64,000 nt of DNA from a bacterium. Its GTDB lineage: Bacteria > Joyebacterota > Joyebacteria > Joyebacterales > Joyebacteraceae. Shown one piece after another: positions 10,470-62,055 of this stretch (positions within the stretch are counted from its first letter, which is position 1; each line of letters begins with the position of its first letter). The DNA lies in contig JALGWI010000032.1 of assembly GCA_025774245.1 (NCBI GenBank), positions 226 through 64,225 on the forward strand. The letters are read 5' to 3'. Below the pieces are notes generated by a model. That model saw only the letters and a list, made by a program, of their open reading frames with translations, was not told where the DNA came from and did not search any database. A program made the translations under genes and the position numbers.

Positions 10470-10531
10470 GGTCCGTCCCGGCGGCCGGGAACGCCGATCG
10501 GCGGCGGCGGCCGCGGTCTTGCGGAGAATCG

Positions 10532-11044
10532 TCACCAGCCCTGCACGGTCTTGCTCAAGACGTCCCGCGCCAGCAGCACGAAGGCCGCGGCCCGGGCTTC
10601 TTCCTCGGTTGCGAACTCGCTCGACACGCCGCCGACCGAGTACGCGGCCCATCCCTCGACGTCGCCCTCCCAGATGATCTCGTTCTTCCGGAGGTTCACG
10701 TAGGAGAGCCGGGCGATCGTGCGCACCTTGTACTCGTTCGGGTTCCCGGCGGCGTCGTACGACATCACCGGGCGCTGGTAGAGGATGACGGCCCCCCTCA
10801 GGATCGACTCGGCCTCGTCCTCTCCGAGGACCCGAAGCGTGTTGTCGTTCTGGAACTCGCGGATGATCGCGTCGGTCAGATCCTGCTCGGCGCCGAACTC
10901 GAGGGTCTCGTTGGCGAGAATGGGCACGGCGATCGACGACACGTCGCCCTTGACCGACTGGGAGAAGCCGTAGTGCGAGCAACCGGAGACGACCAGAGCG
11001 AGGAGGACGAACGGAAGGCCTCGCCGCCAGCTGGACACCATCAT
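10532..11044 (-). CDS. lptE: LPS-assembly lipoprotein LptE
   Basis: 170 aa; lipobox LLALVVSG-C; LptE-like fold signature. Conserved lptE-holA adjacency (as downstream of leuS in E. coli); ATG overlaps the upstream gene's TGA (ATGA). Confidence 0.7.
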   Translation of the reverse strand: MMVSSWRRGLPFVLLALVVSGCSHYGFSQSVKGDVSSIAVPILANETLEFGAEQDLTDAIIREFQNDNTLRVLGEDEAESILRGAVILYQRPVMSYDAAGNPNEYKVRTIARLSYVNLRKNEIIWEGDVEGWAAYSVGGVSSEFATEEEARAAAFVLLARDVLSKTVQGW

Positions 11045-36077: not shown

Positions 36078-36155
<78 letters not shown>

Positions 36156-36210
36156 ACGTACTGGACGGGGCCCTCCCCAAATGGAGGTCCCTATTCCTTC
36201 GATCCATCAG

Positions 36211-36239
36211 AATATACGAAACCCCGGAGGGCTGTCAAG
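36211..36239 (-). promoter_or_regulatory. Sigma70-type promoter for tRNA-Val (and possibly infC-rpmI-rplT-pheST)
   Basis: Minus strand TTGACA-N17-TATATT, about 50 nt upstream of the tRNA 5' end. Confidence 0.6.
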
Positions 36240-36352
36240 CGGGAACATCCGCCCCCCCCTGCGGCCCACTCTCCGACGGACCCCGACCCGTCCGAGAGGC
36301 CACGCCGCACGTTTGGCCCCGGAGGAGATGATCAAGACCCGCACGTGGATTC

Positions 36353-37597
36353 TCAGGTCCGCAGTTGCCAGATGAAGTATGCCAGGCCGACGGAGACGAG
36401 ATAAGCGTACTGCAGCCGGATGGCCTTGCGCGATCGCTCCGAGCCCTCCATTGCGAGGATGCCAGCGAGAATCGTCACCGGAACCACAGCCGACCAGTAT
36501 CTCTCCCACACCTGCGGCACGAGCAGAAGCTCGAGCGTCAGACCCGCCAGGCACAGCATCATGAACGCGATCGCCCGATTCCGGGTCGCCGCCCGGATCA
36601 GTCTCAGGATCGCCAGTGCTCCAAGGGCGACCAGCAGCACGCACACTGCAGCCGCGGGCAGGTGCCCGATCTTGGAAGCGACCAAGTTGAGAATGCTCTG
36701 CAGCGTCCCCTGCGGATTGGCCAGCGTCTGACCGGCCAGGTACAACCGGACCATGCTTTCGGCTGGAATCGCGACCAGCACCGTCGTAACTGCGGCTCCG
36801 GCAATCGTCAAGAGAGTTACGCGCCAGGAGAGCGCCACGACCGGGAGGTAGAACCCAATCAAGGCCAGGCCGAACAGCGGCTGGCCGAGGTTGAGGGCAA
36901 GCTCGTGGGACGAAGCGTAGTCTCTTGGAGGAGAGACGCCGCTCCACATGGCAAACAGAGCGCCGGCGGCCAGGAGAGCGATGACTCCTGCGAGCGTCAT
37001 CGGGTCACCGAGACGACCTCGAAGAGAGGACCTCGTTCGCCACGCCGCTATCAGGAACACTACGGGGAGAAACACCCACGTCTGCCGTGTCCACACTGCA
37101 GCCATCATGCAGGTTCCGGCCCCCAATCCGGCCAACCAGGGGGGCCGCAGTGCGCACAGGGCAACGACCGCCAGGACCGCCCAACACAACGACGGTACTT
37201 CAGTCATGGCCATCGTGCAGTACCAGAGGATCGCGGGGTGCAGGGCGATGACGATCGTGACCCACAGCGCTTGGGTCGATCGCAACCTCCTGCTGGCCAG
37301 CCAGTAGAGCCCCCACAGCGCGCCCACGCCCATGCTTGCGGTCAGGATCCTGGCCGCAGCGAGATCGGCTTTCGTCAACCCGGCGATTCCTGCCACCATG
37401 AAGTGATAGAGCGGGGGCGTTGCCGCCGGGGTCTTGTTCAACTCGAAGGCGGGGAACTGCTCACGAATCTGCTCGATCGTGTCGAGGTGGTAGTGCTCGT
37501 CGAAGTCAAGCGGAGCATCAAGACCCCGAAGTAACAGAGCAAGAAGCACGATCGCGGGCAGGAATGCGGCAGCGGCCAGGTCGTTTCTTCTAGTCAT
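36353..37597 (-). CDS. Polytopic GT-C-fold glycosyltransferase (ArnT/PMT/GT39-GT83-like)
   Basis: 414 aa from internal ATG; about 10-11 TM helices, Arg/aromatic-rich loops. No soluble catalytic motif recognised; family call by architecture only. Confidence 0.5.
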   Translation of the reverse strand: MTRRNDLAAAAFLPAIVLLALLLRGLDAPLDFDEHYHLDTIEQIREQFPAFELNKTPAATPPLYHFMVAGIAGLTKADLAAARILTASMGVGALWGLYWLASRRLRSTQALWVTIVIALHPAILWYCTMAMTEVPSLCWAVLAVVALCALRPPWLAGLGAGTCMMAAVWTRQTWVFLPVVFLIAAWRTRSSLRGRLGDPMTLAGVIALLAAGALFAMWSGVSPPRDYASSHELALNLGQPLFGLALIGFYLPVVALSWRVTLLTIAGAAVTTVLVAIPAESMVRLYLAGQTLANPQGTLQSILNLVASKIGHLPAAAVCVLLVALGALAILRLIRAATRNRAIAFMMLCLAGLTLELLLVPQVWERYWSAVVPVTILAGILAMEGSERSRKAIRLQYAYLVSVGLAYFIWQLRT

Positions 37598-37856
37598 GAC
37601 GAGCCTCACCGCGTCGATGACCCGAGTGCACAAACCGCAATGAGCACGGCGGCTCAGTAGCAGATGGTGCCGTCTCCATCGGATCCTGCCGTTCCCATCA
37701 AGGACCGAGTCGGAGGCCTCGTCGGTGGAGTCTGGGGACGTCTTCTGCTGGGAGTGCCCCGGGAGACACCAGGGCTCAGGAGGCTTGCCGCTTCCGCGGC
37801 TCCGTCGCCGGGCCACCCGGCGATCCGAGGCTGCCCCCGGGGGAGGCACTGGAGAG

Positions 37857-39272
37857 CTACCTGCCTCCCGAACGTATCCCCACCACCCGGATCTCGGTCA
37901 TCTCCTCGATGGCGTACTTCGGGCCCTCCCGGCCGAGGCCGCTGTCCTTCTCCCCGCCGTAGGGCATGAGATCGACCCGGAAGGTCGGGACGTCGTTCAC
38001 CATGACCCCGCCGCACCGGATCTCCCGGGCCGCCCGGAGGGCGTCGTCGAGCCGGTCGGTGTAGATCCCGGCCTGGAGGCCGTACCGCGAGGCGTTGACG
38101 GCCCCGATCGCCTCGTCGAGGGTCCCGAACGGTCGGACGGCGATCACGGGCGCGAACGCCTCGTCCTTCCAGACGCGGGCCTCGTCGGGGACCCCGGTCA
38201 GGATCGTCGGCTCGACGAGGGCGCCCTCGCGCCCGCCGCCGACGGCGAGCCCTGCGCCCATCGCCCGCGCCTCCTCGATCCAGCTCTCGGCGCGCTCGGC
38301 CTCGTTCTCCTCGATCATGGGACCGACGTCGGTCTCCTGGAGGAGCTGGTCGCCGAGACGGAGCGACCGGGTGACCTCCACGGCGCGCTCGAGGAAGCGG
38401 CCCAGCACGCTCTCCTCCACGAGCACCCGCTGGACCGAGATGCAGACCTGCCCCGCGACCGCGAAGCCCCCCCTCACGCAGCGCTCCGCCGCCGTCTCGA
38501 CGTCGCAGCGGTCCGTGACGATGACCGCGGAGTTCGCCCCCAGCTCCATCGCGGTCTTCTTGAGCCCGGCGCGCGACATGATCGCCTTCCCGACCTCGAC
38601 GCTTCCGGTGAACGTCACCATCCGCGGGACCGGGCTTCCGACGAGCCTGTCGCCCACCGTCCTCCCTGAGCCCGTGATCACCGAGAGCGCCTCGGGCGGC
38701 AGCCCCGCCTCGTAGAGGATCTTCCCGAAAGCGATGTCGGTGAGGGGGGTGACGGTGGCGGGCTTCAGGATCACCGCGTTCCCCGCGGCGAACGCGGGCG
38801 CGATCTTGTGGGCGGCGAGGTTGACGGGGAAGTTGAACGGCGTGATGGCGACGACCACCCCGACGGGGACGCGCAGGAAGAACCCGAAACGGCCCTTGCC
38901 GGTCGGGGCGCCGTCGAAGGGCACGATCTCCCCCGCGAGCCGCCGCGCCTCCTCGGCCGAGACGGCGAGCGTCTGCACCGTGCGCGAGATCTCGCCACGG
39001 GCCTCCCGGATCGTCTTCCCCACCTCGGACGCCATCGTCCGGGCCAGGTCCTCGATGCGGTCGCCGACGAGCCGCGACGCCCGGGACAGGATCTCCGCCC
39101 GGTCGAACCGGCTCATGCGCTCCATAATGCGCGCGCCCTCGACCGCGATCGAGAGCGCCTCGTCTACCTGGCTCTCTGTGGCCGACGGGACCGTTCCGAC
39201 CTCGGAACCGTCGAACGGATTGAGGACGGGGATCTCCTGCTCGCCCGCGACCTCCCGCCCGCCGATCAGCAT
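37857..39272 (-). CDS. NAD(P)-dependent aldehyde dehydrogenase
   Basis: 471 aa; ALDH Glu (MELGANS) and catalytic Cys region (GQVCIS), G-x-x-x-G NAD motif (FTGSVEVG); start 2 nt after the upstream gene's stop. Confidence 0.85.
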   Translation of the reverse strand: MLIGGREVAGEQEIPVLNPFDGSEVGTVPSATESQVDEALSIAVEGARIMERMSRFDRAEILSRASRLVGDRIEDLARTMASEVGKTIREARGEISRTVQTLAVSAEEARRLAGEIVPFDGAPTGKGRFGFFLRVPVGVVVAITPFNFPVNLAAHKIAPAFAAGNAVILKPATVTPLTDIAFGKILYEAGLPPEALSVITGSGRTVGDRLVGSPVPRMVTFTGSVEVGKAIMSRAGLKKTAMELGANSAVIVTDRCDVETAAERCVRGGFAVAGQVCISVQRVLVEESVLGRFLERAVEVTRSLRLGDQLLQETDVGPMIEENEAERAESWIEEARAMGAGLAVGGGREGALVEPTILTGVPDEARVWKDEAFAPVIAVRPFGTLDEAIGAVNASRYGLQAGIYTDRLDDALRAAREIRCGGVMVNDVPTFRVDLMPYGGEKDSGLGREGPKYAIEEMTEIRVVGIRSGGR

Positions 39273-39274
39273 CT

Positions 39275-41299
39275 TCACTTCTTCTCTCCCGGGGGTTCGT
39301 CGTCGGTGTAGGCGGGGAACATCGCCGAGCTGCCCCTCCCCTCGATGACCTCGACGTCGCCCTCGACGGTCCGGACCGTGACCTCGCTCACGGAGGGGTT
39401 CGCGATGAGGAACCTCGCGAGCGGCTTGAGCACGAGACCCTCGACGGTCCTCCCGAGGTTCCGCGCCCCGTACTCGCGGCTGTGCCCCTTTTCCACGAGG
39501 ACGGTGACCGCGCCCTCGGTGACGTTGAGGGCGATCTCGCGGAGGGCGAGCCGCGCCCTGACATCGTCGAGGTGGATCTGCACGATCTGCCGGAGCGCCT
39601 CGTCGCCGAGCGGGTCGAAGAGCAGGACCTCGTCGATCCCGTCCATGAACTCGGCCGGGAAGAACTCCTCGATCGCCTCCCGTGCCTCCTGCACGTGTCG
39701 CTCGCGCCTCCCGTGATCGACCTGCCCGAAGCCGACGGCGCCGTTCTCGCCCGCGGCCGGCACGATGTTCTCCGAGTTCGACGTCATGACGACGGTCGCG
39801 TTCGAGAAGAAGACCTTCGAGCCGTGCCCGTCGACGATGTAGCCCTCGCGGAAGATCTGCATCATCATCACGGCGACGTCGCGGTGCGCGCGCTCGATGT
39901 GCTCGAAGACGACGACGGAGTGCGGATGCCGGAGGACGGTGCTCGAGAGATCGCCCGGAAAATCGGCGTCGCCGAGCTTGAGGCCGATCAGGCGCGCGAG
40001 GCCGTCCTCGTCGCTGTAGCGCGCCATGTTGAACTCGAAGAGGAGCTCGTCGCTCCCGTAGACCTCGTGGGCCAACCCGTGCACGAGCTCGGTCTTCCCG
40101 ACGCCCGGCGGCCCGACGAAGAGGAAGACGCCGTTGGGGCGCGTCGGGCGGGCGTCGAGACCGAGCATGGTCACGCGGATCGTGTCCGCGAGCTTCCTGA
40201 TGCAGTGGTCCTGCCCCTTGACGCGTTTCGCGAGGTTCTCCTCGAGCGAGAGGAGCTCGCGCCCTCCCGCCGAGGTGAGCTTCGACGTCGGAATCCCGAT
40301 CCAGTCCGAGAGCGCTTCGGCGACGTGTTCCGCGCCGAGCGGCGGGGCGTCGGGACTGCCGTTCGCGGCGGTCGCGAGCTTCGACGCCGCGCGGTCCAGG
40401 AGCTCGAGCGCCTTCCCCGGGAGGACCCTCTCCCGGATGTGCGACCCGGAGAGATCGACCGACGCCTCGATGGCCTCCTCGCCGATCGAGATGCCGTGGA
40501 ACTCGGCCAGATCCCCGGCCCGCTCGTGGAGGATGCCGAGGGTGGCGTTGCGGGACGGCTCGGGCACCTCGACGCGCACCAGGAGCCGGCCGCACCACGG
40601 GAGCGTGCGGATCGCCTCACGGTAGAGCTGCGGCGTACCGCTCCCCAGGAGATAGAGCCCCGGTTGGCGGCAACCCAGCTCGATGGCGTGGGCGGCGTTG
40701 AAGAAGGCCCGCTGCTCGCCGACGATCCCCATGAAGCTCGTGATCTGGCTCAGGAAGAGGATGACGTCTTCGCGCGCGGCGGCCTCACGGATGGCGGCGA
40801 AGACGATCTTCTCGAAGTCGCCCGGCTGGCGGACGCTCGAGAGGACACGGTAGAAGGGAAGCTCGATCACCCGGCGGCCGAGGAGCCGGGGTGGCACGCG
40901 GCCCTCGGCGATGTGCCTGGCGAGGACCACGGCGAGCGCCTGCTTGCCCACGCCGTCCGGTCCGATCAGGACGGCGGCGTGGCCCTGGCGCCGCTGGAGG
41001 ATCTCCTTGACGCGGGTGAGCTCGGTCTCCCAGAGGTCGCCGTCGGCGACCGGCACGCGGTCGGCGGCCACGGCGGAGAGATCGACGCCGAGCCCGGTGA
41101 GAACGCTCACCGCGTCCTCCTCGGACTCGCCCCCGGTGATGAGCGGGCCTCCCTCGCCGGCGGGGTCCTCCGTCGACCCCGGGCCGGGCTCGAGCCCCTC
41201 CTCAACGCCGCCGGGCACGGGAACCGGATCGGTCTCGCGGCCTTCGTCCGCGGCCCCGGGGACCGCCTCCGGATCCATGGCGTCCGCTTCGCGCGTCAT
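39275..41299 (-). CDS. Clp/Hsp100-like double-AAA+ protein with degenerate ATPase motifs (ClpA/ClpC-like, no M-domain), acidic N-terminal tail
   Basis: 674 aa. NBD1 has Walker A GPDGVGKQA and Walker-B position ILFLSQITSF (no DE). NBD2 has Walker A GPPGVGKTE, Walker-B VVVFEHIERAH (catalytic Glu replaced by His), sensor-1 TSN, GARNLGR arginine finger/sensor-2 and a VGFG tripeptide resembling the ClpP-docking loop. Confidence 0.7.
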   Translation of the reverse strand: MTREADAMDPEAVPGAADEGRETDPVPVPGGVEEGLEPGPGSTEDPAGEGGPLITGGESEEDAVSVLTGLGVDLSAVAADRVPVADGDLWETELTRVKEILQRRQGHAAVLIGPDGVGKQALAVVLARHIAEGRVPPRLLGRRVIELPFYRVLSSVRQPGDFEKIVFAAIREAAAREDVILFLSQITSFMGIVGEQRAFFNAAHAIELGCRQPGLYLLGSGTPQLYREAIRTLPWCGRLLVRVEVPEPSRNATLGILHERAGDLAEFHGISIGEEAIEASVDLSGSHIRERVLPGKALELLDRAASKLATAANGSPDAPPLGAEHVAEALSDWIGIPTSKLTSAGGRELLSLEENLAKRVKGQDHCIRKLADTIRVTMLGLDARPTRPNGVFLFVGPPGVGKTELVHGLAHEVYGSDELLFEFNMARYSDEDGLARLIGLKLGDADFPGDLSSTVLRHPHSVVVFEHIERAHRDVAVMMMQIFREGYIVDGHGSKVFFSNATVVMTSNSENIVPAAGENGAVGFGQVDHGRRERHVQEAREAIEEFFPAEFMDGIDEVLLFDPLGDEALRQIVQIHLDDVRARLALREIALNVTEGAVTVLVEKGHSREYGARNLGRTVEGLVLKPLARFLIANPSVSEVTVRTVEGDVEVIEGRGSSAMFPAYTDDEPPGEKK

Positions 41300-41374
41300 G
41301 CGGTTCCCCCCTGCCCGTCCCCGCGGAGCGGCCGCGGCGTCACCGCGGAGCGCCCGCGATTCCCGGGCTCGTCC

Positions 41375-41974
41375 CTACACGCCCTCGCCCGTCGCTCCCT
41401 CGTCGTGCGCTTCCTCGTCCGTCCGCCGCTCGCTCGGACGTCGCCGCTTGGCCGCGCGGTCCCACTCGGTCCTGAGCTCCTCGTACTGCTCCTCGATCAC
41501 CTGGCGCGTGTCGTCGGGAAGCAGACCAACGATCGCGTCGGTCCCCCCGAGCACCTTCGGGGCGAGACGCGACTCGATCAGGAAGCCCTCCTCCTGCAGA
41601 CCCGCCATGACGGCAAGCAGGAGCAGCACCCCGGAGACGATCACGGCGATCGCAAGCCCGAGGAGACCGCCCAGGAGCCCGTCGAACCAGCCGAGAGAGG
41701 ACAGCTTCAAGGCCTTGGCGATGAGGCGGGCGATGAACCCCACGAGGATGACGATCGCGAGGAAGATGACGACGAACGCGACGATTCTGGACGCCGCCTC
41801 GCCCGGCACGAACGTGAAGACGGTCTCGGCGACCTGCTCGTGGAAGCTGGCGGCGAGGACGACGCCGAGGCCGAGGCCGGCGAGTCCGAGGAGACCGCGC
41901 ACGAAGCCCCGGGAGAGCCCGATCAGAAACCCGGCCAGGAGCACGATGGCGATGACGAGATCGGCAGCGTTCAT
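41375..41974 (-). CDS. cvpA: CvpA-family membrane protein (colicin V production protein homolog)
   Basis: 199 aa; 4 TM helices with Gly-rich CvpA pattern (GLLGLAGLGLGVVLA...GLLGGLLGLAIAV); charged C-terminal tail. Confidence 0.7.
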   Translation of the reverse strand: MNAADLVIAIVLLAGFLIGLSRGFVRGLLGLAGLGLGVVLAASFHEQVAETVFTFVPGEAASRIVAFVVIFLAIVILVGFIARLIAKALKLSSLGWFDGLLGGLLGLAIAVIVSGVLLLLAVMAGLQEEGFLIESRLAPKVLGGTDAIVGLLPDDTRQVIEEQYEELRTEWDRAAKRRRPSERRTDEEAHDEGATGEGV

Positions 41975-42055
41975 GATCCCTCCCGCGAGCTATGCAGGCC
42001 ATCGACGAAATCGCGTCACGAGACGCTATCACCGGCCGCAGCCGGTGTCAAGCGG

Positions 42056-42087
42056 GGTGTCGCGACGGGGTCGGTGTCGCGACGGGG
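42056..42087 (-). promoter_or_regulatory. Tandem direct repeat carrying two 8-bp palindromes (GTCGCGAC) upstream of the cvpA/clp-like/ALDH operon
   Basis: gGTGTCGCGACGGGGtcgGTGTCGCGACGGGGcc with 17-bp period, preceded by hairpin CACCGGC-cgcag-GCCGGTG (likely terminator of the upstream gene). Confidence 0.35.
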
Positions 42088-42110
42088 CCCGTATTGCGGC
42101 GCGGTCCAGG

Positions 42111-44123
42111 CTAGTTGAGAACCAGGAGCTTGGCGGTGTGGGTCTCGTCGCCCACGCGAAGGGCGCAGAAGTAGCAGCCCGACGCCACCCTCGCTCCCCC
42201 GTCGGCCGCGCCGTTCCACTCGACCTGGTGACGGCCGGACGGGAGGATCCCGTCGACGAGGCGGCGCACGACGCGTCCCGCCACGTCGTAGACGGTGATC
42301 GACACGGGCGAGCCGCTGGCCCATCGCTCGTCGTCGGCGATGCCGAACGAGATCGTCGTCGTGTCGCGCACGGGGTGCGGCGCGAAGCTCGTGATACCGG
42401 TCACCGCCGACTCGGCGGAGCCGCCTTGCGAGATCCACGTGAGGTCCTGCCGCCCGTCAAGCCCATCGACCTTGGACTCCAGAGTACGGTCGCTCCCCGG
42501 GACCACCGACACTTCTATCGGACGTGACGGCAGGCCCTCACACTGGTTGGCGTCGATCGGTGCGATCTGGTAGTGGTGCGTTCCTCTTCCGATCGTCCTC
42601 ACGTCGTGGAAGACCGGATCGTCGACCACGTCGAGGAGGGTTCTGGGCGAGACGGACCCGGCGCGCTCCAGCCAGTAATAGACGGAGTACCGGGACGCGT
42701 CCGGGATCGTCGTCCACTCGAGCAAGACTCCCGATTCGTCGATCGTGGCCTCGCCGATACTGTCGGTCACCTCGAGGATCCGGCCGTTCCCGATGAGCAC
42801 CGTCCCCGAGAAGGGCACGAGCTCGACCGTCGTCGTGGCGCCGGCGAGCGGGTAGAACTCCCCGTTCCAGGACGAGAGATCGTAGTACTTGAGCCCGAGC
42901 TCGATCGTCTGGGTGTACGACGACGGGTTGACGACCGCTACACCGTTGCTGAACCGGCGGAGCCGCACCATGTCGCCGAGCTCGACCCAGGGCACGTCCC
43001 CGGGCTCGGCGACGACCGACTCGGCGCGATCGAGCGGCTGGCCGAGCTCGACGTCGTAGAGGTCGTGCCACCAGGCCTGGGAGTGCGCCGGGAGCCCGTC
43101 ACCGCCGTCGAACGAGAAGTAGCCGTTCCCGTACACGAGGACGCTCGTCAGCCAGAACGCGAACTTCCGCTCGAACTCGTCGTCCCTCAGGGGGCCGTTC
43201 GGTCCCACCGGTCCCCGCCAGATCGAGTTCACGATGTTGATCGTCTCGCTGCGGTAGCGCTGCTGAATGGCGACGTACCCGTACCCGGGGTTCATGATGT
43301 TCTGGTACCACCCGCCGTGCATGCGCGGGAAGTCCTCGCGGGTCGAACCGTTGACGAGGCCCCAGAAGGTGTTGTTCCCGTTCGACGCGATGATGTAGTC
43401 CTCCCCGACCTTCTCGCGGAGCCTGGAGACGATCACGTGCTGCCCGCCGCGCCAGGCGGCGTCGAGCGCCTCGTCGCTGTCGGCAAGGCCGTCGAGGTTC
43501 GAGTCGATCGGGTCGGCGACGTAAGCGTTCGCCCAGGAGATGTGGTCCATGCAGAAATCGAGATAGACGCCGTCCCAGCATCCTCCCGGGCCCAGGTTGT
43601 CGGCGATGAACGTCGGCAGCCAGTCGCAGAGACGCTGCCCCTGCGCGTTGTCCGGGCAGAAGAGCGTGCAGTTCACGAGCCACGACCCGAACGGCATGAG
43701 GACGCGCTGGCCCTCCGTGTCGCGCATCCACCAGCCGTTGTCGTTGAGCGCTTCCACGAGATCGCCGTTGATCTCGGGCGACGTCCAGTCGCCGCAGTAC
43801 CCGATCGGCATGTGGACGAGGAACCTGATGTCGGGATTGAGGGCGCGGATCGTCGCCATCTCCTCCTGGTACCACGCCTGCGACCGCTTCGGAAGAACGA
43901 GCACGTCCCAGCGGGAGAAGAGCTCGAGGTCGGCCCCGATGAGCGTGCCGAAGTAGATGTTGGCGAGTCGCGGGTACGACTCGTCGTCTCCGGAGGCTCT
44001 GCCGGGTGAGGCGAGGATCAAGATCCCCGAGAGCGCGATGAGAAGAAAGGGAAGAAACCAGTGTGTGCAGCCTGCGCCGCGCGCGGCCGTTCGTCCGCAA
44101 TGATGCATGTATGCGACTCCCAT
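42111..44123 (-). CDS. Secreted putative glycoside-hydrolase-like (GHL-type TIM-barrel) protein with C-terminal T9SS/FlgD-Ig-like sorting domain
   Basis: Internal ATG (ORF residue 78; alternative ATG 15 nt downstream); signal peptide ...WFLPFLLIALSGILILASPGRASG; W/Y/D-rich catalytic-like core; C-terminal ...GCYFCALRVGDETHTAKLLVLN resembles the tail of the M28 peptidase. Confidence 0.55.
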   Translation of the reverse strand: MGVAYMHHCGRTAARGAGCTHWFLPFLLIALSGILILASPGRASGDDESYPRLANIYFGTLIGADLELFSRWDVLVLPKRSQAWYQEEMATIRALNPDIRFLVHMPIGYCGDWTSPEINGDLVEALNDNGWWMRDTEGQRVLMPFGSWLVNCTLFCPDNAQGQRLCDWLPTFIADNLGPGGCWDGVYLDFCMDHISWANAYVADPIDSNLDGLADSDEALDAAWRGGQHVIVSRLREKVGEDYIIASNGNNTFWGLVNGSTREDFPRMHGGWYQNIMNPGYGYVAIQQRYRSETINIVNSIWRGPVGPNGPLRDDEFERKFAFWLTSVLVYGNGYFSFDGGDGLPAHSQAWWHDLYDVELGQPLDRAESVVAEPGDVPWVELGDMVRLRRFSNGVAVVNPSSYTQTIELGLKYYDLSSWNGEFYPLAGATTTVELVPFSGTVLIGNGRILEVTDSIGEATIDESGVLLEWTTIPDASRYSVYYWLERAGSVSPRTLLDVVDDPVFHDVRTIGRGTHHYQIAPIDANQCEGLPSRPIEVSVVPGSDRTLESKVDGLDGRQDLTWISQGGSAESAVTGITSFAPHPVRDTTTISFGIADDERWASGSPVSITVYDVAGRVVRRLVDGILPSGRHQVEWNGAADGGARVASGCYFCALRVGDETHTAKLLVLN

Positions 44124-44400
44124 CCCCACGGTCCGGGTGTAACAATGCGGCTTCGGCCACGCCGCAATGCGTGCCAGACTGCAAAGACTGTGCCACGTGA
44201 CAGGGAGTGCCGCGCCCGGCGCGGGGCCCGTGGGCCCGTCAGGAGGAATCGGGAGAGGCTCCGAGGATCGAGGGATTCGGACCGCCGGGCGGGGCTCGCG
44301 GATGACGCGCCCGGTGTCAGCGCTCGGGAACGGGGGCGGCGTGAAGAACGCCACGTTGTCGGCCCCGATGACGAGGGGCCGGTCAGACGGTCGTGTCTTC

Positions 44401-44490
44401 TGGTGCCGGGGGCCGGACTCGAACCGGCATGAGGCACGTGGCCCCGACGGATTTTAAGTCCGATGCGTCTACCAGTTGCGCCACCCCGGC
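44401..44490 (-). tRNA. tRNA-Leu (anticodon TAA), type II with long variable arm
   Basis: GCCGGGGTGGCGCAACTGGTAGACGCATCGGACTTAAAATCCGTCGGGGCCACGTGCCTCATGCCGGTTCGAGTCCGGCCCCGGCACCA. Confidence 0.85.
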
Positions 44491-44569
44491 GGCAACGCGG
44501 CCGGCCGGCGGCCCAGGCCTGCGTTCGGGACGTTCTCCACGCAGGGGTCGGCTGCCGGCCGGATCGGTC

Positions 44570-44644
44570 TGGAGGCGGCGCCCGGATTCGAACCGGGGAT
44601 CAAGGATTTGCAGTCCTCTGCCTTAGCCACTTGGCTACGCCGCC
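44570..44644 (-). tRNA. tRNA-Cys (anticodon GCA)
   Basis: GGCGGCGTAGCCAAGTGGCTAAGGCAGAGGACTGCAAATCCTTGATCCCCGGTTCGAATCCGGGCGCCGCCTCCA; U73 discriminator. Confidence 0.9.
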
Positions 44645-44699
44645 TCGCGATATAAGGAAGGCAGGGGCAGTCTACAAGATCGCCCCTGCCCAGCAAGGC

Positions 44700-44774
44700 T
44701 GGAGCGGGAAACGGGGCTCGAACCCGCGACATCCACCTTGGCAAGGTGGCGCTCTACCACTGAGCTATTCCCGC
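44700..44774 (-). tRNA. tRNA-Gly (anticodon GCC)
   Basis: GCGGGAATAGCTCAGTGGTAGAGCGCCACCTTGCCAAGGTGGATGTCGCGGGTTCGAGCCCCGTTTCCCGCTCCA. Confidence 0.9.
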
Positions 44775-47531: not shown

Positions 47532-48596
47532 CTACCCTCCGCCGATGAGCCCCTTCTTCCTGAGCTCGGCCACGACGGTCCTGACGTCGCGCGCCCGGTC
47601 CTTCGGACAGACGAGGGTGACCCCGTCCGTGCGCGCCACGACCACGTCCCGCATCCCGATGACGGCCACGACGCCCTCCTCGGAGTAGACCACGCAGCCC
47701 TCCGAGTCGACGATCACCGAGCGGCCCTCGGCCACGTTCCCGTCCCCGTCCTCCTCCCAGATCCGCGCGAGCGCCGGCCAGGCTCCGACGTCGTCCCAGC
47801 CGATCTCGCACGGCACGACCGTCACGTGATCCGCCTTCTCCATCACGGCGTAGTCGACCGAGATGTCAGGGACTGTCTCGTAGTACTCCTCGATCTCCGC
47901 CTCGAAGCCGACCGTGCCGGGCACCTCCGTGACGCCGGCGAGCGCTTCCGCGACCGGAGCGAGGTGGCGGCCGATCTCCTCGAGGAACCGGTCGGCGCGC
48001 CAGATGAAGATCCCGCTGTTCCAGTAGTAGCCCCCGTCCAGGACGTAGCGCGCGGCCGTCTCCCGGTCGGGTTTCTCGACGAACCTGTCGACCTGCCGGA
48101 CGCCGTCGACGCCGGCCGGCCCGCCTGCCTTGATGTAGCCGTACTCGGTCTCCGGCCTCGTGGGACGTATCCCGAGCGTCACGAGCGCCCCCTCGGACTC
48201 GGCCTCCTCGAACGCGAGCGAGATCGCCCGCCGGAAGGCGTCGGCGTCGAGGATGACGTGGTCGGCCGGCAGAACGACCATGGCGGCGTCCGGGTCCGCC
48301 GCGAGCAGCACGCTGGCCGCCAGCGCGATCGCCGGCGCTGTGCTCTTCCCGACGGGCTCACCGATGATCCGCTCGGTCGGAACCGGCTCGAGCTCCTCGA
48401 GGATCTTCTCCCGGAGGGAAGCGCCGGTGAGGACGAGCGTGTCGTCGACCGAGACGAGCGGGGCGATCCGCGTGAGCGTCTCGGAGACGAGCGACGAGCG
48501 GCCGATGAGCTTCAACAGCTGTTTCGGCCGCTCCCGGGTGCTCATCGGCCAGAGCCTCTCGCCCCAGCCCCCGGCCAGAATTACAGCGTACCTCAT
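47532..48596 (-). CDS. Mannose-1-phosphate guanylyltransferase (nucleotidyltransferase domain only, no PMI cupin)
   Basis: 354 aa; AVILAGGWGERLWP (G-x-G-x-R-L), ...EKPD...GGYYWNSGIFIW.... Confidence 0.8.
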   Translation of the reverse strand: MRYAVILAGGWGERLWPMSTRERPKQLLKLIGRSSLVSETLTRIAPLVSVDDTLVLTGASLREKILEELEPVPTERIIGEPVGKSTAPAIALAASVLLAADPDAAMVVLPADHVILDADAFRRAISLAFEEAESEGALVTLGIRPTRPETEYGYIKAGGPAGVDGVRQVDRFVEKPDRETAARYVLDGGYYWNSGIFIWRADRFLEEIGRHLAPVAEALAGVTEVPGTVGFEAEIEEYYETVPDISVDYAVMEKADHVTVVPCEIGWDDVGAWPALARIWEEDGDGNVAEGRSVIVDSEGCVVYSEEGVVAVIGMRDVVVARTDGVTLVCPKDRARDVRTVVAELRKKGLIGGG

Positions 48597-48675
48597 GGGT
48601 CGGAAGCTCCTCTTGCGACCTCGCGCATCGCGCCCTACCCCGTCGTGCGTCGCCGAGCGGCGCGTCCCGGAGCGG

Positions 48676-49563
48676 TCAGTGCGACCGCGAGAGACAGAAG
48701 TCAGCGATCTCCCGCAGCATCCGGGTCTCGCCGTCCAGCCGGTCGAGCGCCTCGTGCGCCGTCCGGACGAATCCGGCGGCCGCGTCCTTCGCCGTCGCAC
48801 TTCCGTGAACCGTCACGAACGTGATCCTGCCGGCGTCCTTCCCCGTCTCCTTGCCGACGGTCTCGGGATCCCCCTCCGCGTCGAGGAGATCGTCGACGAT
48901 CTGGTAGGCGAGCCCGAGACATCGCGCGTAGTCCGAGAGCGGCTCGAGCCGGGCCTCGTCGGCGCCCAGGAGGATTGCACCGCCCCTCGCCGCGGCCACG
49001 AAGAGCGACGCGGTCTTCCTGCTCTGGATGTACTCCAGCGTCTCGGGATCGACGGCCGAGTCTCCGGCGACCTCGAGATCGACGTGCTGGCCGCCCACCA
49101 TGCCGCCGGCCCCGACGGCCGCGGAGAGTTCCCTGATCGCCTTCGCCAGCGCCCTCTGCCCGGACGCGACGTCGATGCCGTTCTCGACGACGAGCCCCAC
49201 GGCGTGCATCAGAAGATCGTGCGCCGCGAGAATCGCCGTCGCGACGTCGAACTGGCGGTGCGTCGAGGGCCGTCCCCGTCGGGTGGGTGCGTCGTCCATC
49301 GACGGGAGGTCGTCGAGGACGAGCGAGGAACAGTGCACGCACTCGACGGCGCAGGCGGCCTTCGTGACGAGATCCGGGTCGTGCCCGAGCGCCCCGGCGG
49401 CCGCGCGGACGATGATCGGCCGGAGCCTCTTGCCGCCCCCGAGGGTCGCGTACCTGATCGCCTCGTGGATGCGCCTGGGATGCACGTCGCTCGCGGGGAG
49501 GCAGCGGGCAAGCGCCTGCTCGACGATCGCCTTCTCCTCCTCGAGCACGTAGAGAACGTCCAA
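48676..49563 (-). CDS. Second trans-polyprenyl diphosphate synthase (IspA/GGPPS family) embedded in the polysaccharide locus
   Basis: FARM LVLDDLPSMDDAPTRRGRPSTH, SARM YQIVDDLLD; TTG start with AAGGAG upstream (start uncertain). Confidence 0.75.
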   Translation of the reverse strand: MDVLYVLEEEKAIVEQALARCLPASDVHPRRIHEAIRYATLGGGKRLRPIIVRAAAGALGHDPDLVTKAACAVECVHCSSLVLDDLPSMDDAPTRRGRPSTHRQFDVATAILAAHDLLMHAVGLVVENGIDVASGQRALAKAIRELSAAVGAGGMVGGQHVDLEVAGDSAVDPETLEYIQSRKTASLFVAAARGGAILLGADEARLEPLSDYARCLGLAYQIVDDLLDAEGDPETVGKETGKDAGRITFVTVHGSATAKDAAAGFVRTAHEALDRLDGETRMLREIADFCLSRSH

Positions 49564-49625
49564 GGACCCACGCTCCTTCTTCGACCTCGGGGCCGTCGTC
49601 AGCCCGCCGGGATTCGCCGGCGCCG

Positions 49626-50723
49626 CTAGAAGCCTCTCAGCAACGTGTAGTATATCGCCTCGGTGTGGAGCGTCACACCGTCCCAGTCGTAGGTCTCGAG
49701 GACGTGCCGCCTGGCGCGGTCGCCCATGGCGAGGCACCTGTCGGGCTCCGCGAGGAGCTTCCCGAGCTTCCCTGCGAGATCGTCGGGATCGCTCTGACGG
49801 AAGGTCATCCCGCAGTCGCCGATCACCTCGAGGTTCTCCGCGATGTCGCTCGTCAGGCAGCAGTTGCCGAAGCTCATGGCCTCGAGGAGCGCGATCGGAA
49901 GGCCCTCGATGTCGGAGGGCAGGACGAATATGCGGGCGTTCGAATAGAGCTCGTCGAGGAGGTCGCCGTAGACGTATCCGGTGAAGCGCACCTTGTCACC
50001 GCCCATGGCGTGCAGACTGTCGACGTATTCGCTCGAGAAGCTCGTCCCGCCGGCGATGATCAGCTCCGCGTCCGTGTCGAGCTTCTTGTACGCATCGAGG
50101 AGGTAGTGAGCGCCCTTCTCTGGCACGAGACGGCCCACGAAGAGTATGTAGCTCCCGGGCTCGATGCCCATCTCCCGGATCTTCTGCGCGTCCCGCACGT
50201 GCGGCAGGACCGTGCCGTTCGGGATGTAGGTGACGGTGACGTCGCGGCTCCTCTGGAAGTACTCGCGGAGCGCCTTCGAGACGGCGATCGTCCGGTTCGG
50301 GTAGTGCACGGCCGTGTACTCGCACCGCCTCAGGATCCAGGTCGCCACCGTCCCCCACTTCTCCCGCTGCCAGTCGAGACCGTGCACGGTCGCGACCGCC
50401 TTCATCCCCCTGAAGCGCGGGAGACTCGCGAAGAGAGACGGGCCGAGCGCGTGGAAGTGGACGATGTCGTAGTCGCGGGCCAGGATGTGCGGGATCGCGA
50501 AGCCGCAGTGCGTCGCCGTGTCGAGGTGCTTGGTCCGGACGCTCGGAACGTGAGCCAGCTTCACCCCCCGGTACTCCCCCCGCATCTTCGTGTAGTAGGG
50601 CCGGCAGTAGACCGTGACCTCGTGCCCCCGTTCGACGAGACGCGTCGCGAGCTCCTCGACGTGGCGCTCGATGCCGCCGTACGTGGCCGGGATCCCCTTC
50701 TGGCCGAGCATCGCTATCTTCAA
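49626..50723 (-). CDS. GT4-family glycosyltransferase
   Basis: 365 aa; TTG start overlapping the upstream TGA (TTGA) giving MKIAMLGQKG; C-terminal E-x7-E motif region (...VLPSDIEGLPIALLEAMSFG...). Confidence 0.8.
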   Translation of the reverse strand: MKIAMLGQKGIPATYGGIERHVEELATRLVERGHEVTVYCRPYYTKMRGEYRGVKLAHVPSVRTKHLDTATHCGFAIPHILARDYDIVHFHALGPSLFASLPRFRGMKAVATVHGLDWQREKWGTVATWILRRCEYTAVHYPNRTIAVSKALREYFQRSRDVTVTYIPNGTVLPHVRDAQKIREMGIEPGSYILFVGRLVPEKGAHYLLDAYKKLDTDAELIIAGGTSFSSEYVDSLHAMGGDKVRFTGYVYGDLLDELYSNARIFVLPSDIEGLPIALLEAMSFGNCCLTSDIAENLEVIGDCGMTFRQSDPDDLAGKLGKLLAEPDRCLAMGDRARRHVLETYDWDGVTLHTEAIYYTLLRGF

Positions 50724-51940
50724 TGGGTGACCCTCTCGTAAATGGCCATGATCTGCTCGAAGTGGCGGTCGGGTCCGTACTCCCGCTCGACACGAGCCCT
50801 CGCGGCCTTCCCCATGTCGACCGCGCGAGCGCGGTCGCCCCACAGCTCCTCGAGCCTTCCCGCGAGCGCGCCGTCGTCGCCCGGCGGGAAGAGCAGACCC
50901 GTCTCGCCGTCGACGACGAGCTCCGGGATGCCGCCGATCGAGGAACCCACGACGGGCTTGCCCATCGCGCATGCCTCGTAGACCGTCAGGGGCGAGTTCT
51001 CGTAGCACTCCGACGGCACGACGACGCACGTGGAGCCCGCGACTATCGACTTGAGCTCGTTGCCGTTCAGGTACCCGACGAACTCGACGTCCGCGAGACC
51101 CTGCTCCGCCGCGACCCTCGCGAGCTCGTCGGCGAGCGGTCCGTCACCGACGACCTTGAATGGGATCCCCCTGGCCCGCGCCAGCGCCTTCATGAGCGTC
51201 TCGAGTCCCTTCCCCGTGGAGAGGCGGCCGACGTAGACGGCGTACCCGTTGGAGACGTACGTCGGTTCGTACTCGTCGAGAGCGATCGAGTACGGAAGGT
51301 GGACGATCTGCTTCCTGTCGATGCCGTGTGCCACCATCCGTTCGAGTAGCTGCTGGCTCGGCGCTATGAAGAGATCGACGTTCCTGACGTACGTTCCCAT
51401 CACCTTGTGCAGGTAGGCCTCCAGGCAGACGAGCGCGCTGGGGGCCAGCGAGTCCCTCATGCAGCGGTGCACGCAGGCCCGGTAGTACCGCCAGTGCCCG
51501 CACCGCTCGCAGGTCTTCCCGTCGAGGAACATCTGATAGTTCGGACAGACGAGCTTGTAGTCGTGGAGCGTCTGAACGACCGGGACGCCCTTCGCCCGGA
51601 GTCCGGCGATGATCGACGGCGACAGCTGATGCGCAATGTTGTGAAGGTGCGCGACGTCGGGTCGCGTGCGGTCGACGAGCGCTTCGACCTTCTTCCTCGC
51701 CTCGACCGAGTAGAGCAGGCGCGCGGCGGCCCGGATCGCGTCGAGGGGCCCGCCGGCGCCGTCGAACGACTCGTGCGAGACGAAGAGGTCGGAGTGCTCC
51801 GACGGCTCGTTCTCCTCGTGCTCCATCGCGAACGGGACGGTCGCAACGCCACGCTCCTCGAGGATGCGACCCAGCTCGAAGAGGTAGCGCTCGGCTCCGC
51901 CCTTGACGAAGTAGTACTTGTTCGCGACGAGCACCTTCAT
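50720..51940 (-). CDS. GT4-family glycosyltransferase
   Basis: 406 aa; MKVLVANKYYFVKGGAERY..., C-terminal ...VVPSECYENSPLTVYEACAMGKPVV... (E-x7-E). Confidence 0.8.
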   Translation of the reverse strand: MKVLVANKYYFVKGGAERYLFELGRILEERGVATVPFAMEHEENEPSEHSDLFVSHESFDGAGGPLDAIRAAARLLYSVEARKKVEALVDRTRPDVAHLHNIAHQLSPSIIAGLRAKGVPVVQTLHDYKLVCPNYQMFLDGKTCERCGHWRYYRACVHRCMRDSLAPSALVCLEAYLHKVMGTYVRNVDLFIAPSQQLLERMVAHGIDRKQIVHLPYSIALDEYEPTYVSNGYAVYVGRLSTGKGLETLMKALARARGIPFKVVGDGPLADELARVAAEQGLADVEFVGYLNGNELKSIVAGSTCVVVPSECYENSPLTVYEACAMGKPVVGSSIGGIPELVVDGETGLLFPPGDDGALAGRLEELWGDRARAVDMGKAARARVEREYGPDRHFEQIMAIYERVTH

Positions 51941-51974
51941 CGATGGCTCCGCCCGTCCGTGGCCCAGGAGCTTG

Positions 51975-54175: not shown

Positions 54176-54227
54176 GTGAGCCTCCTGCCGGCGACCGGGC
54201 GAGTCCCTCCGGCCGACGAAAGCCCCA

Positions 54228-55553: not shown

Positions 55554-55573
55554 GGCCGGAATCCAAGCTCCTC

Positions 55574-61894: not shown

Positions 61895-62055
61895 GCTGTC
61901 GCTCCGCGATACGTGTCAGGCCAATGTCCTTGCGCGTCTCTGCTCCAAGTACTTCCCGGCCTCGTGCACGACCGCGACACCGGGGCGCTCGTCGCAGACT
62001 CCCCCGCCGGGAGAGCGCTCCCGCGGGCGGTGGCGCCGGGAGGCCGCTCCGGGAA

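Follow-up and report, generated by a model that had tools for sequence, protein, structure and literature searches.

A conserved Clp/Hsp100-type protein of Candidatus Eisenbacteria with predicted hydrolysis-dead AAA+ modules and a ClpP-type docking loop

What can a Clp-type protein do when residues for ATP hydrolysis are missing from both of its AAA+ modules? The question is raised by a gene on the minus strand of the window, the 64,000-nucleotide stretch of DNA analyzed here, which encodes a degenerate class-I Clp/Hsp100 protein of 674 amino acids (39275..41299; Pfam domains AAA_lid_9, AAA_2, and ClpB_D2-small). The gene is the second in a cluster of three on the same strand. It is preceded by cvpA (41375..41974, minus strand), whose 199-amino-acid product is an inner-membrane protein of the CvpA/colicin V production family (PF02674, E=2.9e-27, above cutoff) with a charged, basic C-terminal tail, and it is followed by a gene for a canonical NAD(P)-dependent aldehyde dehydrogenase (ALDH) of 471 amino acids (37857..39272, minus strand; PF00171, E=2e-154). 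The gap between cvpA and the clp-like gene is 75 nucleotides, and the junction from the clp-like stop codon to the ALDH start codon reads TGA-ag-ATG. The map agrees in its coordinates with the preliminary description of the locus, which had placed ALDH 2 nt downstream of the clp-like gene and cvpA upstream of it. The ALDH has the catalytic motifs ELGAN and GQVCIS, aligned with solved structures, the nearest of which are 5j6b, ALDH21, and the lactaldehyde dehydrogenase of M. jannaschii. Its best NCBIfam model is lactaldehyde dehydrogenase, with a score below the cutoff of that model. Spurious long open reading frames are common in the window, which has a GC content of 67–70%; an example is an antisense frame of 878 amino acids at 39482..42118.

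The 674-amino-acid protein has the full two-ring fold of the ClpA/ClpC type, composed of two AAA+ modules and a D2-small domain, as indicated by both its sequence and its predicted structure. Its proposed identity as a Clp/Hsp100 protein with two AAA+ modules is supported by alignments to ClpB, ClpC, and ClpA. Residue-level HMMER alignments used ClpB of T. thermophilus (1qvr) and ClpC of S. aureus (6em8) as references, and motif columns were taken from a MAFFT alignment against canonical ClpC and ClpB. The scores against the NCBIfam equivalog models are far below all cutoffs, reaching about one third of those for ClpA (323 vs 993) and ClpB (343 vs 1232). The AlphaFold (AF2) model has a pLDDT of 87.8 and a pTM of 0.81, and Foldseek ranks ClpC chains, solved in complex with ClpP, highest among its structural matches, with E-values of about 1e-50.

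The protein lacks two of the accessory domains of its relatives. It has no Pfam match to Clp_N (PF02861), and in place of this domain it begins, as had been proposed, with an acidic, low-complexity, disordered tail of approximately 60–64 residues (41108..41299, minus strand), of which residues 1–59 are modeled with pLDDT <50. The tail has a net charge of −16; the median tail of the family has 46 residues and a charge of −7, and its sequence is not conserved across the family. The M-domain is also missing, in line with the preliminary description: in the HMMER alignments, residues 403–522 of ClpB and approximately 412–452/470 of ClpC have no counterpart, and ClpA aligns to the protein in one stretch.

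Homologs of the protein fall into about 96 sequence clusters, which form a monophyletic clade with neighbor-joining bootstrap support of 100/100, although long-branch attraction between rapidly evolving sequences may have inflated this result. All members with a named source are labeled Candidatus Eisenbacteria. The degenerate signature was found in only four 50%-identity clusters among 1.84 billion representatives, and no earlier description of this family was found in the literature. The nearest canonical Clp ATPases are about 30% identical, at a Kimura distance of about 1.5, compared with 0.89 among canonical sequences. Residues at motif positions were counted in 80 core and 16 outer members of the clade (96 in total) and in 113 canonical sequences.

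In the first AAA+ module (NBD1), the Walker A motif reads GPDGVGKQ (40940..40963, minus strand), with the lysine kept and the Mg-ligand threonine replaced by glutamine. The lysine is present in 96/96 clade members and the threonine in none of them (R91, Q4, K1). The Walker B motif reads VILFLSQ (40745..40765, minus strand), with the acidic DE pair replaced by SQ. Both substitutions had been noted before and are reproduced by the HMMER and MAFFT alignments. Across the family, the Walker B acid positions are occupied by NG, SQ, GG, and other pairs; they vary and are therefore not selected for catalysis. The pore loop of NBD1 reads VRQPG (40820..40834, minus strand) instead of the canonical (A/T)KYRG, so that KYR is replaced by RQP and the aromatic residue is lost; tyrosine or phenylalanine occurs here in 0/96 clade members, compared with Y77/F17 of 113 canonical sequences. 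At the arginine-finger position, GRLL (40580..40591, minus strand) stands in place of ERRF, with RR changed to RL. The first arginine of the pair is found in 24/96 clade members and the second in 1/96.

The second module (NBD2) has an intact Walker A motif, GPPGVGKT (40091..40114, minus strand), whose lysine is present in 96/96 clade members and whose serine or threonine in 80/80 core members. In its Walker B motif, VVVFEH (39899..39916, minus strand), the aspartate is replaced by glutamate, and the alignments corroborate the previously reported replacement of the catalytic glutamate by histidine (His467). None of the 80 core members has glutamate at this position (H53, Q20, N5, A1, S1), compared with 113/113 canonical sequences. 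The tyrosine of the pore loop is replaced by an acidic residue (GDAD instead of GYVG; 39962..39973, minus strand); the core contains D56/E24 at this position, and tyrosine occurs in 0/96 clade members but in 109 of 113 canonical sequences. The sensor-1 motif TSN (39776..39784, minus strand) is kept, as first described, and its asparagine is found in 65/80 core members. The GAR tripeptide at residues 611–613 (39461..39469, minus strand), which the preliminary description took for an arginine finger, aligns with GARPL of ClpB and ClpC and is the retained sensor-2 motif; its arginine is shared by 80/80 members of the core, whereas just 2/16 of the outer ones have it. The true arginine-finger position carries glycine: MDGID (39632..39646, minus strand) replaces LNRID, and the canonical F[IL]NR[IL]D reads FMDGID. 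Arginine is found here in 0/96 clade members (core G79/A1), compared with 113/113 canonical sequences.

At the sequence level, the case for a Clp/Hsp100 paralog with predicted hydrolysis-dead modules and a retained ClpP-docking loop is thus stronger than originally claimed: the lesions are family-wide, the losses extend to both pore-loop tyrosines and the arginine finger of NBD2, and 96/96 members have the Gly-Phe of the loop. Chance is not at issue, since the same lesions recur over approximately 96 homologous clusters. As read from the alignments, the NBD2 pocket of the core retains its nucleotide-binding residues (Walker A lysine and serine/threonine, Walker B acid, sensor-1 asparagine, and sensor-2 arginine) but has neither the catalytic glutamate nor the arginine finger that acts in trans; missing from NBD1 are the Mg ligand, both acidic residues of Walker B, and the arginine fingers. 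Nucleotide binding is perhaps not general in the clade, because outer members lose the sensor-2 arginine and the Walker A threonine of NBD2. The protein is therefore best described as a predicted pseudo-unfoldase, a conserved and catalytically degenerate class-I member of the Clp/Hsp100 family.

Only one canonical functional motif, the hydrophobic-Gly-Phe tripeptide with which Clp ATPases dock on ClpP, is kept without exception in the clade. In the protein studied here, it is formed by VGF at residues 522–524 (39728..39736, minus strand), the equivalent of the IGF/LGF loop; the surrounding loop, residues 511–530, is modeled with lower confidence. The earlier suggestion of a ClpP loop holds, as the tripeptide aligns with the Gly-Phe of the ClpP-binding loop of S. 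aureus ClpC, and G523 and F524 are found in every member (96/96), between flanking residues that vary. Outer lineages carry other NBD2 lesions (GKN, GAH, and loss of the arginine finger) yet all retain the Gly-Phe, a pattern which argues that the family can do without hydrolysis but not without the loop. ClpP is near-universal in bacteria, and on this general ground its presence in these genomes is assumed; tblastn found neither ClpP nor a canonical Clp ATPase within the window or the fetched Eisenbacteria loci. Loops of the IGF type dock into hydrophobic sites of ClpP, and ADEP bound in the same sites opens its gate (PMC9035409).

With a retained loop but without the residues that serve ATP hydrolysis and the pulling of substrates, the protein probably acts passively on ClpP, as a cap or a regulator. 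Its specific form may be, as a tentative proposal, a nucleotide-stabilized, non-translocating ring that docks on ClpP. The static ring would assemble, probably stabilized by nucleotide, like a natural double Walker-B "trap" mutant, with its VGF loops seated in the hydrophobic pockets of ClpP. Such a cap would not translocate substrates. It could keep the gate of ClpP open, so that peptides or unfolded chains would enter without ATP; alternatively, it could compete with active Clp ATPases for ClpP. With both arginine fingers lost, hexamers might assemble less readily, and the Gly-Phe loop could have a partner other than ClpP.

It is conceivable, though unlikely, that the protein is a regulatory or "poison" subunit, which mixes into the hexamers of a canonical Clp ATPase of the same cell (ClpC or ClpA). 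Since it has no arginine fingers and no pore tyrosines, such a subunit would silence neighboring ATP sites and slow or re-tune unfolding, while its own VGF loop would preserve the contact of the mixed ring with ClpP. The retained docking loop fits this reading, as does the ring-forming fold, which is fully retained and confidently modeled. Arginine fingers act in trans, and their loss (0/96 members) would affect neighboring subunits; mixed rings of active and inactive ClpA subunits are known to function (PMC7568338). However, an identity of about 30% to canonical Clp ATPases and the faster divergence make conserved heteromeric interfaces less likely, and the protein has neither an N- nor an M-domain for matching a partner.

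The genomic neighborhood raises another, rather doubtful, reading: a ClpP-independent nucleotide-binding scaffold or holdase that serves its operon neighbors, for example by tethering or chaperoning ALDH at the membrane via CvpA in an envelope or aldehyde-stress module. The order cvpA-clp-ALDH is present in 7/7 loci of the core subfamily, with clp-to-ALDH gaps of 1–31 nt where readable. Because the clp-like gene runs in the same direction as cvpA and lies very close to ALDH, the three genes are likely co-transcribed in core Eisenbacteria. The Clp-like protein also has an acidic N-terminal tail and an acidic pore; the C-terminal tail of CvpA is basic. However, the trio is embedded in a far longer syntenic block, from GHL15 to infC-rpmI-rplT-pheST, so that shared ancestry would suffice to account for the linkage. 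In four divergent clade members (L085, L086, L087, and L089), neither cvpA nor ALDH lies beside the clp-like gene, which looks monocistronic in three of them. The partnership stressed in the preliminary description is thus real and tight in the core and absent from these members; it is lineage-specific, does not define the family, and is weak evidence for a functional module. A scaffold would also leave the invariant ClpP-type loop unexplained.

The conservation of the core NBD2 Walker A, acidic Walker B residue, sensor-1, and sensor-2 speaks for an ATPase or unfoldase that is still active through non-canonical residues, with the NBD2 histidine or glutamine as general base, a compensating arginine elsewhere, and substrate gripped by non-aromatic pore loops. 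The catalytic position is occupied by His467, which is polar and conserved. Such activity is nevertheless improbable: glutamine and asparagine alternate with histidine (H53, Q20, N5), and a glutamate-to-glutamine change in Walker B is the classical way to make a hydrolysis-dead trap. Glycine stands at the arginine-finger position in 79/80 core members, both pore aromatics are missing in 96/96, and outer lineages have lost further NBD2 residues.

A decaying pseudogene or annotation artifact of a GC-rich genome, which the many lost catalytic residues and the frequent spurious frames of the window might suggest, is effectively refuted by the intact reading frame with a GC3 of 0.93, typical for real genes in the window, the approximately 96 clusters, 68 invariant columns among 79 sequences of 53–69% identity, a dN/dS of 0.22 against a 99%-identical relative (with similar or higher values for neighboring genes), and the confident AF2 model. 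These observations point to a functional protein under selection.

Among known systems, ClpC is the best sequence match class (about 30–33% identity) and the best fold match. ClpC and ClpA share with the protein a hydrophobic-Gly-Phe loop in the corresponding place behind the sensor-1 strand. ClpA likewise has no M-domain, whereas ClpC has one. Unlike both, the protein is without Clp_N and, in both rings, without the catalytic Walker B glutamate, arginine fingers, and pore tyrosines. ClpB/Hsp104 gives the highest single HMM and PDB scores (TIGR03346, 343 bits; 1qvr, E=1e-91), which are driven by NBD2; however, ClpB has a long M-domain and no ClpP loop, the reverse of the arrangement found here.

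The proposed ring resembles the engineered double Walker-B (E→Q/A) traps of ClpC, ClpB, and ClpA. In these mutants, both rings carry a substitution of the catalytic glutamate, ATP is still bound, and the hexamers are stable. The trap-like glutamine at the NBD2 catalytic position is natural in 20/80 core members. Engineered double Walker-B ClpC and ClpB are still hexameric (PDB 7abr, 6qs6). Pore tyrosines and arginine fingers, both lost from the natural protein, are still present in the traps, whose pore holds on to substrate. ClpM of the Plasmodium apicoplast is described as degenerate in D1 only and as having no ClpP-binding motif (bioRxiv 10.64898/2026.05.20.726455). It is a natural ClpC paralog with a degenerate AAA+ module, like the protein studied here, but its pattern is the opposite of that in the Eisenbacteria protein, which combines degeneration of both rings with an invariant ClpP motif.

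The concepts of a non-hydrolyzing assembly ring and of an ATP-free opener of a protease gate have precedents. NSF D2 and Pex1/Pex6 D1 are structural, non-hydrolyzing AAA+ rings, with one of two rings inactive, and PA26/PA28 and Bpa/PafE are ATP-independent proteasome activators that are not AAA+ proteins. The chloroplast co-chaperonin Cpn11/20/23 caps ClpP via mobile loops and represses proteolysis (bioRxiv 10.1101/2021.07.26.453741). ADEP antibiotics and Cpn11/20/23, which are not ATPases, may share with the Eisenbacteria protein the occupation of the ClpP docking pockets at no ATP cost. They are unrelated to it in sequence and fold; the ligand here would be a fossil unfoldase ring.

The clp-like gene (window positions 39275..41299, 674 aa) lies between cvpA (41375..41974, 199 aa; Pfam Colicin_V, E=2.9e-27) and a gene for an aldehyde dehydrogenase (ALDH; 37857..39272, 471 aa; Pfam Aldedh, E=2e-154). 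The gene map places all three on the minus strand at the coordinates of the preliminary description, and the two-nucleotide gap that it had noted between the clp-like stop and the ALDH start reads TGA-ag-ATG. The end of cvpA is separated from the downstream clp-like start by 75 nt. The clp-like frame has a GC3 of 0.93, in line with real genes of this 67–70% GC genome. The long antisense open reading frame at 39482..42118 is a GC artefact. The catalytic glutamate (MELGAN) and cysteine (GQVCIS) motifs of the ALDH align, and its nearest solved structures are 5j6b, ALDH21, and the lactaldehyde dehydrogenase of M. jannaschii; the enzyme is an ordinary member of its family.

A scan of positions 35900-42400 for promoters and terminators found no convincing site within the three-gene cluster. 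The sole strong sigma-70-like promoter of the scanned region (TTGACA, 16 nt, TATATT; 11/12 matches) belongs to tRNA-Val(GAC); the tRNA and its promoter occupy 36078..36155 and 36211..36238 on the minus strand, and the promoter sequence is identical in L088, the corresponding locus of a 99%-identical relative (GCA_030610575.1). Inside the spacer between cvpA and the clp-like gene, at about 41305..41345 on the minus strand, a GC-rich near-palindrome (CGCTCCGCGGTGACGCCGCGGCCGCTCCGCGG) directly precedes a G-rich stretch resembling a ribosome-binding site. The near-palindrome could form a hairpin that tunes read-through or translation.

Pfam domains scoring above cutoff in the clp-like protein are AAA_lid_9 (residues 250-317), AAA_2 (387-557), and ClpB_D2-small (564-639), and its HMMER alignment with ClpA is collinear in one stretch over residues 91-637. 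Foldseek returned a probability of 1.00 to ClpC, ClpB, and ClpA, with ClpC chains taken from ClpC:ClpP complexes as the top matches. The AlphaFold2 model calculated with the family alignment has a pLDDT of 87.8 and a pTM of 0.81. By its predicted structure, the protein is a class-I Clp/Hsp100 with two tandem AAA+ modules and a D2-small domain. As had been described, it lacks a Clp N-domain (no PF02861 match; the ClpC alignment starts only at ClpC residue 159) and an M-domain (no PF02151 (UVR) match; residues 403-522 of ClpB and ~412-452/470 of ClpC are without counterpart). Its first ~60 residues form an acidic low-complexity tail with a net charge of -16, in which residues 1-59 are disordered (pLDDT <50). 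The ClpP partners ClpC, ClpA, and ClpX dock through a surface loop bearing a hydrophobic-Gly-Phe/Leu tripeptide. The loop 511-530, which bears the candidate ClpP-docking tripeptide VGF, is of lower confidence in the model, as expected because a docking loop is flexible.

The protein falls outside all named subfamilies, since its scores are only 323.5 bits for the ClpA equivalog (TIGR02639; cutoff 993) and 343 bits for that of ClpB (TIGR03346; cutoff 1232). The ClpA-type N-domain is also missing; relative to ClpB, the M-domain is missing and a ClpP loop is present. Membership in ClpA, ClpB, ClpV, ClpK, or ClpG was rejected, every score being far under the respective cutoff. ClpC is the closest relative in sequence and fold, but its N-domain (a double Clp_N repeat) and M-domain have no equivalent here. 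ClpA is the closest in architecture, although the score is far under the ClpA cutoff.

Clp/Hsp100 proteins are ATP-driven unfoldases. Residue-by-residue HMMER alignments with T. thermophilus ClpB (1qvr) and S. aureus ClpC (6em8) bore out the motif substitutions reported from the sequence alone. In the first nucleotide-binding domain (NBD1), the Walker A threonine is replaced by glutamine (GPDGVGKQ vs canonical GEPGVGKT) and the Walker B DE by SQ (ILFLSQ vs ILFIDE), and in NBD2 the catalytic Walker B glutamate is histidine (VVFEHIE vs ILFDEIE). The NBD2 Walker A motif is intact (GPPGVGKT), the sensor-1 TSN is retained, and the VGF-like loop AVGFGQ aligns with FAGFGG of the ClpP-binding loop of ClpC, with V522-G523-F524 on the ClpC GF. 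One assignment had to be corrected: the GAR triplet taken for an arginine finger aligns with the sensor-2 motif, which reads GARPL in ClpB and ClpC. The NBD2 arginine finger is itself lost (FMDGID vs canonical F[IL]NR[IL]D). This loss had escaped the preliminary description, as had those of the NBD1 pore loop (KYR to RQP), the NBD2 pore loop (GYVG to GDAD), and the NBD1 arginine pair (RR to RL). Judged by these alignments, the protein lacks each sequence attribute of an active unfoldase, namely the catalytic glutamate, the trans arginine finger, and the aromatic pore residue.

The same columns were counted in the degenerate clade, which comprises 80 core sequences of close homologues and 16 divergent outer ones, and in 113 canonical sequences. 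The Walker A lysine of both rings is present in 96/96 clade members (canonical K111 in NBD1 and K113 in NBD2). The NBD1 Walker A threonine occurs in none of the 96, where it is mostly arginine (canonical T100, S11), and the NBD1 Walker B positions (canonical D110 and E105) vary in the core (N/S/D/G and G/Q/N/D) and are mostly N-Q in the outer sequences; glutamate occupies the catalytic position of NBD1 in 2/80 core members. Neither pore aromatic is found in any clade member: tyrosine or phenylalanine in NBD1 (canonical Y77, F17), and tyrosine in NBD2 (canonical Y109), where the core has Asp/Glu. The first acid of the NBD2 Walker B is retained (core E72/D8; canonical D113), but the catalytic glutamate, present in all 113 canonical sequences, is absent from all 80 core members (H53, Q20, N5). 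The NBD2 arginine finger is likewise invariant in canonical proteins (R113) and absent from the clade (0/96; G79 in the core). The NBD1 arginine pair is variable across the family. Sensor-2 arginine is found in 80/80 core and 2/16 outer sequences (canonical R113), and the core keeps the NBD2 Walker A Ser/Thr (80/80) and sensor-1 asparagine (65/80). The Gly-Phe of the docking loop is present in all 96 (canonical G104, F89), preceded by V/L/M/A and with variable flanks.

The core NBD2 pocket looks fit for Mg-ATP, with the P-loop lysine and sensors retained and the general base and trans arginine gone. These motifs are those of a nucleotide-binding pseudo-ATPase, nucleotide binding itself being predicted. 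In the outer group of protein P0121, the Walker B DE is retained, but the motifs GKN and GAH are present and the arginine finger is missing. Because the outer lineages are differently broken, different lineages have lost different catalytic parts and none the docking tripeptide.

A homology search of 5.8 billion proteins yielded ~80 clusters (53-72% identity, 606-680 aa), whose named-source members are labelled Candidatus Eisenbacteria. Below them lies an identity gap: the next relative is 35% identical, followed by canonical ClpC at ~30%. When 1.84 billion 50%-identity representatives were searched with a profile, the degenerate signature was present in only four clusters, those of P0008 (the core), P0121, P0122, and P0124, after which canonical Clp proteins followed. 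A homology search seeded with P0121 added two further divergent subgroups, some members of which are labelled Eisenbacteria. A neighbor-joining tree of 142 sequences recovers both the degenerate clade and, within it, the core subfamily as monophyletic groups (100/100 bootstraps each), a result open to long-branch attraction. The branches are accelerated, with Kimura distances of ~1.5 to canonical Clp vs 0.89 among canonical sequences. An alignment of 79 members has 68 invariant columns. Relative to L088, the clp-like gene carries 15 synonymous and 10 non-synonymous changes (dN/dS 0.22), and the neighboring cvpA and ALDH genes have dN/dS of 0.37 and 0.44. The clp-like family is conserved, not decayed.

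Among the nearest canonical relatives, P0125 and P0126 have a degenerate NBD1 without the pore tyrosine and a fully intact NBD2. The NBD1 motifs are GLGRR / FVDG in one of the two and FADI / ARG in the other. Since NBD1 is degenerate in both while NBD2 is intact, the sequences suggest a graded series in which NBD1 decayed ahead of NBD2.

The gene order GHL15 – cvpA – clp-like – ALDH – (tRNA-Val) – infC-rpmI-rplT-pheS-pheT is preserved in 7/7 core contexts (the window and the loci L001, L002, L003/L004, L088, L092, and L093), with clp-to-ALDH gaps of 1-31 nt. This spacing within a conserved order makes it plausible that the clp-like and ALDH genes are co-transcribed, and possibly translationally coupled, in the core subfamily. 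The partnership with ALDH and CvpA remarked on at the outset holds in all seven core contexts examined. However, neither gene is near the clp-like gene in the four divergent members examined (L085, L086, L087, and L089), and ALDH and CvpA were rejected as defining partners of the family. Because the trio sits within a far longer syntenic block and is absent from these four loci, the partnership is a trait of the lineage. Opposite-strand genes flank the clp-like gene in L085, L086, and L087, and in L089 the stop of the P0124 gene overlaps the start of the next gene, which lies on the same strand and encodes 194 aa. In L087 (P0279, GCA_016930695.1), a convergent serpin gene (9897..11192) lies directly downstream of the degenerate clp gene, and ExbB/ExbD-type genes are found upstream in two divergent loci (L087 6439..7706 and L086 1..304). 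The vicinity of the serpin and ExbB/ExbD genes may be a coincidence.

Between ALDH and the tRNA-Val/infC operon, a 1.63-kb segment (36246..37875) holds a 498-aa multi-pass membrane open reading frame (36353..37849, minus strand) with weak GT-C-type matches (PMT_2, ALG10). The segment is missing from every other syntenic locus, including L088, in which its flanks meet to within ~22 nt. It looks like a recent insertion because its composition (GC 0.65, GC3 0.77) departs from that of its neighbors (~0.9); the last few ALDH codons are altered by it. The upstream neighbor of cvpA encodes a GHL15-family putative glycoside hydrolase (42111..44354, minus strand, 747 aa) with a C-terminal FlgD_ig-like domain, and some relatives (L003, L092) have it as a tandem duplicate. 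Clustered genes for tRNA-Leu(TAA), tRNA-Cys(GCA), and tRNA-Gly(GCC) (44401..44774, minus strand) separate it from a glycogen-synthase-like gene. A polysaccharide-biosynthesis region (47532..62000, minus strand) encodes several GT4 glycosyltransferases and Wzy_C O-antigen-ligase-like, heparinase II/III-like, and mannose-1-P guanylyltransferase-like proteins. Housekeeping genes fill the remainder of the window: leuS and those for a FadL-like outer-membrane protein, a sigma-54 response regulator, an M28 peptidase, and NAD kinase. A Clp-related partner gene is found nowhere in the 64 kb.

Sequence and model show a complete two-ring Clp fold with conserved P-loops, in which NBD1 has neither a magnesium ligand nor Walker B acids and the pore loops are non-aromatic, that of NBD2 acidic. 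Such a protein may form a static ring, probably stabilised by nucleotide, and dock on ClpP with no translocation of substrate, either as a cap that opens the gate or in competition with active unfoldases. We put this reading at slightly less than an even chance. It is based on the docking of IGF/LGF-type loops into the ClpP hydrophobic sites, the activation of ClpP by ADEP through occupancy of these same sites (PMC9035409), and the assembly of engineered double Walker-B ClpC and ClpB (PDB 7abr, 6qs6). More tentatively, and with the balance clearly tilted against it, the protein could be a natural ligand of the ClpP docking pockets in Eisenbacteria, an ATP-independent fossil ClpC/ClpA ring that would neither hydrolyse ATP nor thread substrate but would still insert its VGF loops into ClpP, serving as gate-opener or, by blocking active unfoldases, as anti-Clp cap. 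With E. coli queries, tblastn against the window and all retrieved loci, those of Eisenbacteria included, gave no match for ClpP, and ClpX gave only weak matches, to Clp genes of Firmicutes loci. The matches listed for the pattern FVGP[SPT]GVGK in genome contigs include Firmicutes ClpC/ClpE/ClpL and no family member.

The clp-like protein might instead join a canonical Clp ATPase in mixed hexamers and there act as a regulatory or poison subunit, which we consider unlikely. A ClpP-independent scaffold acting with CvpA and ALDH is less likely still: the three genes are together throughout the core and apart in the divergent loci, and the docking tripeptide is kept in both. That the protein remains an active enzyme through non-canonical catalysis, with histidine at the catalytic position, is improbable, because Gln/Asn alternate with that histidine and the arginine finger and pore aromatics are lost. 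A GC-rich artefact or pseudogene was rejected on the GC3, homologue clusters, invariant columns, dN/dS, and AlphaFold2 model, and for a pseudogene the chance is close to nil.

A whole bacterial lineage has long kept a Clp ring while discarding every residue for hydrolysis and gripping and never losing the ClpP-docking tripeptide, whereby docking on ClpP is separated from unfolding for it. The family illustrates how pseudo-enzymes originate in AAA+ machines; some of its nearest canonical relatives are already degenerate in NBD1. If ClpP is bound, the family offers a direct test of whether docking of the loop is by itself enough to regulate ClpP in vivo. Since ADEPs act at the ClpP gate, control of this gate by Clp proteins is a drug-target question.

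A Clp protein that is degenerate in both modules yet keeps the ClpP loop is not described in the literature searched, and the precedents are partial. The rings NSF-D2 and Pex1/6-D1 have a structural role, and the activators PA26 and Bpa act on the proteasome independently of ATP. A gate-opening clp-like ring would be a functional analogue of these activators and a protein counterpart of ADEP. Laboratory double Walker-B traps retain pore tyrosines and arginine fingers, whereas the clp-like protein has neither. Plasmodium ClpM, as described, has a degenerate D1 and no ClpP motif (bioRxiv 10.64898/2026.05.20.726455). In chloroplasts, ClpP is capped by Cpn11/20/23, a non-ATPase whose mobile loops are inserted and which represses proteolysis (bioRxiv 10.1101/2021.07.26.453741). 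Provided that it binds ClpP, the clp-like protein would be the first ATP-independent ClpP cap in nature that derives from an AAA+ protein.
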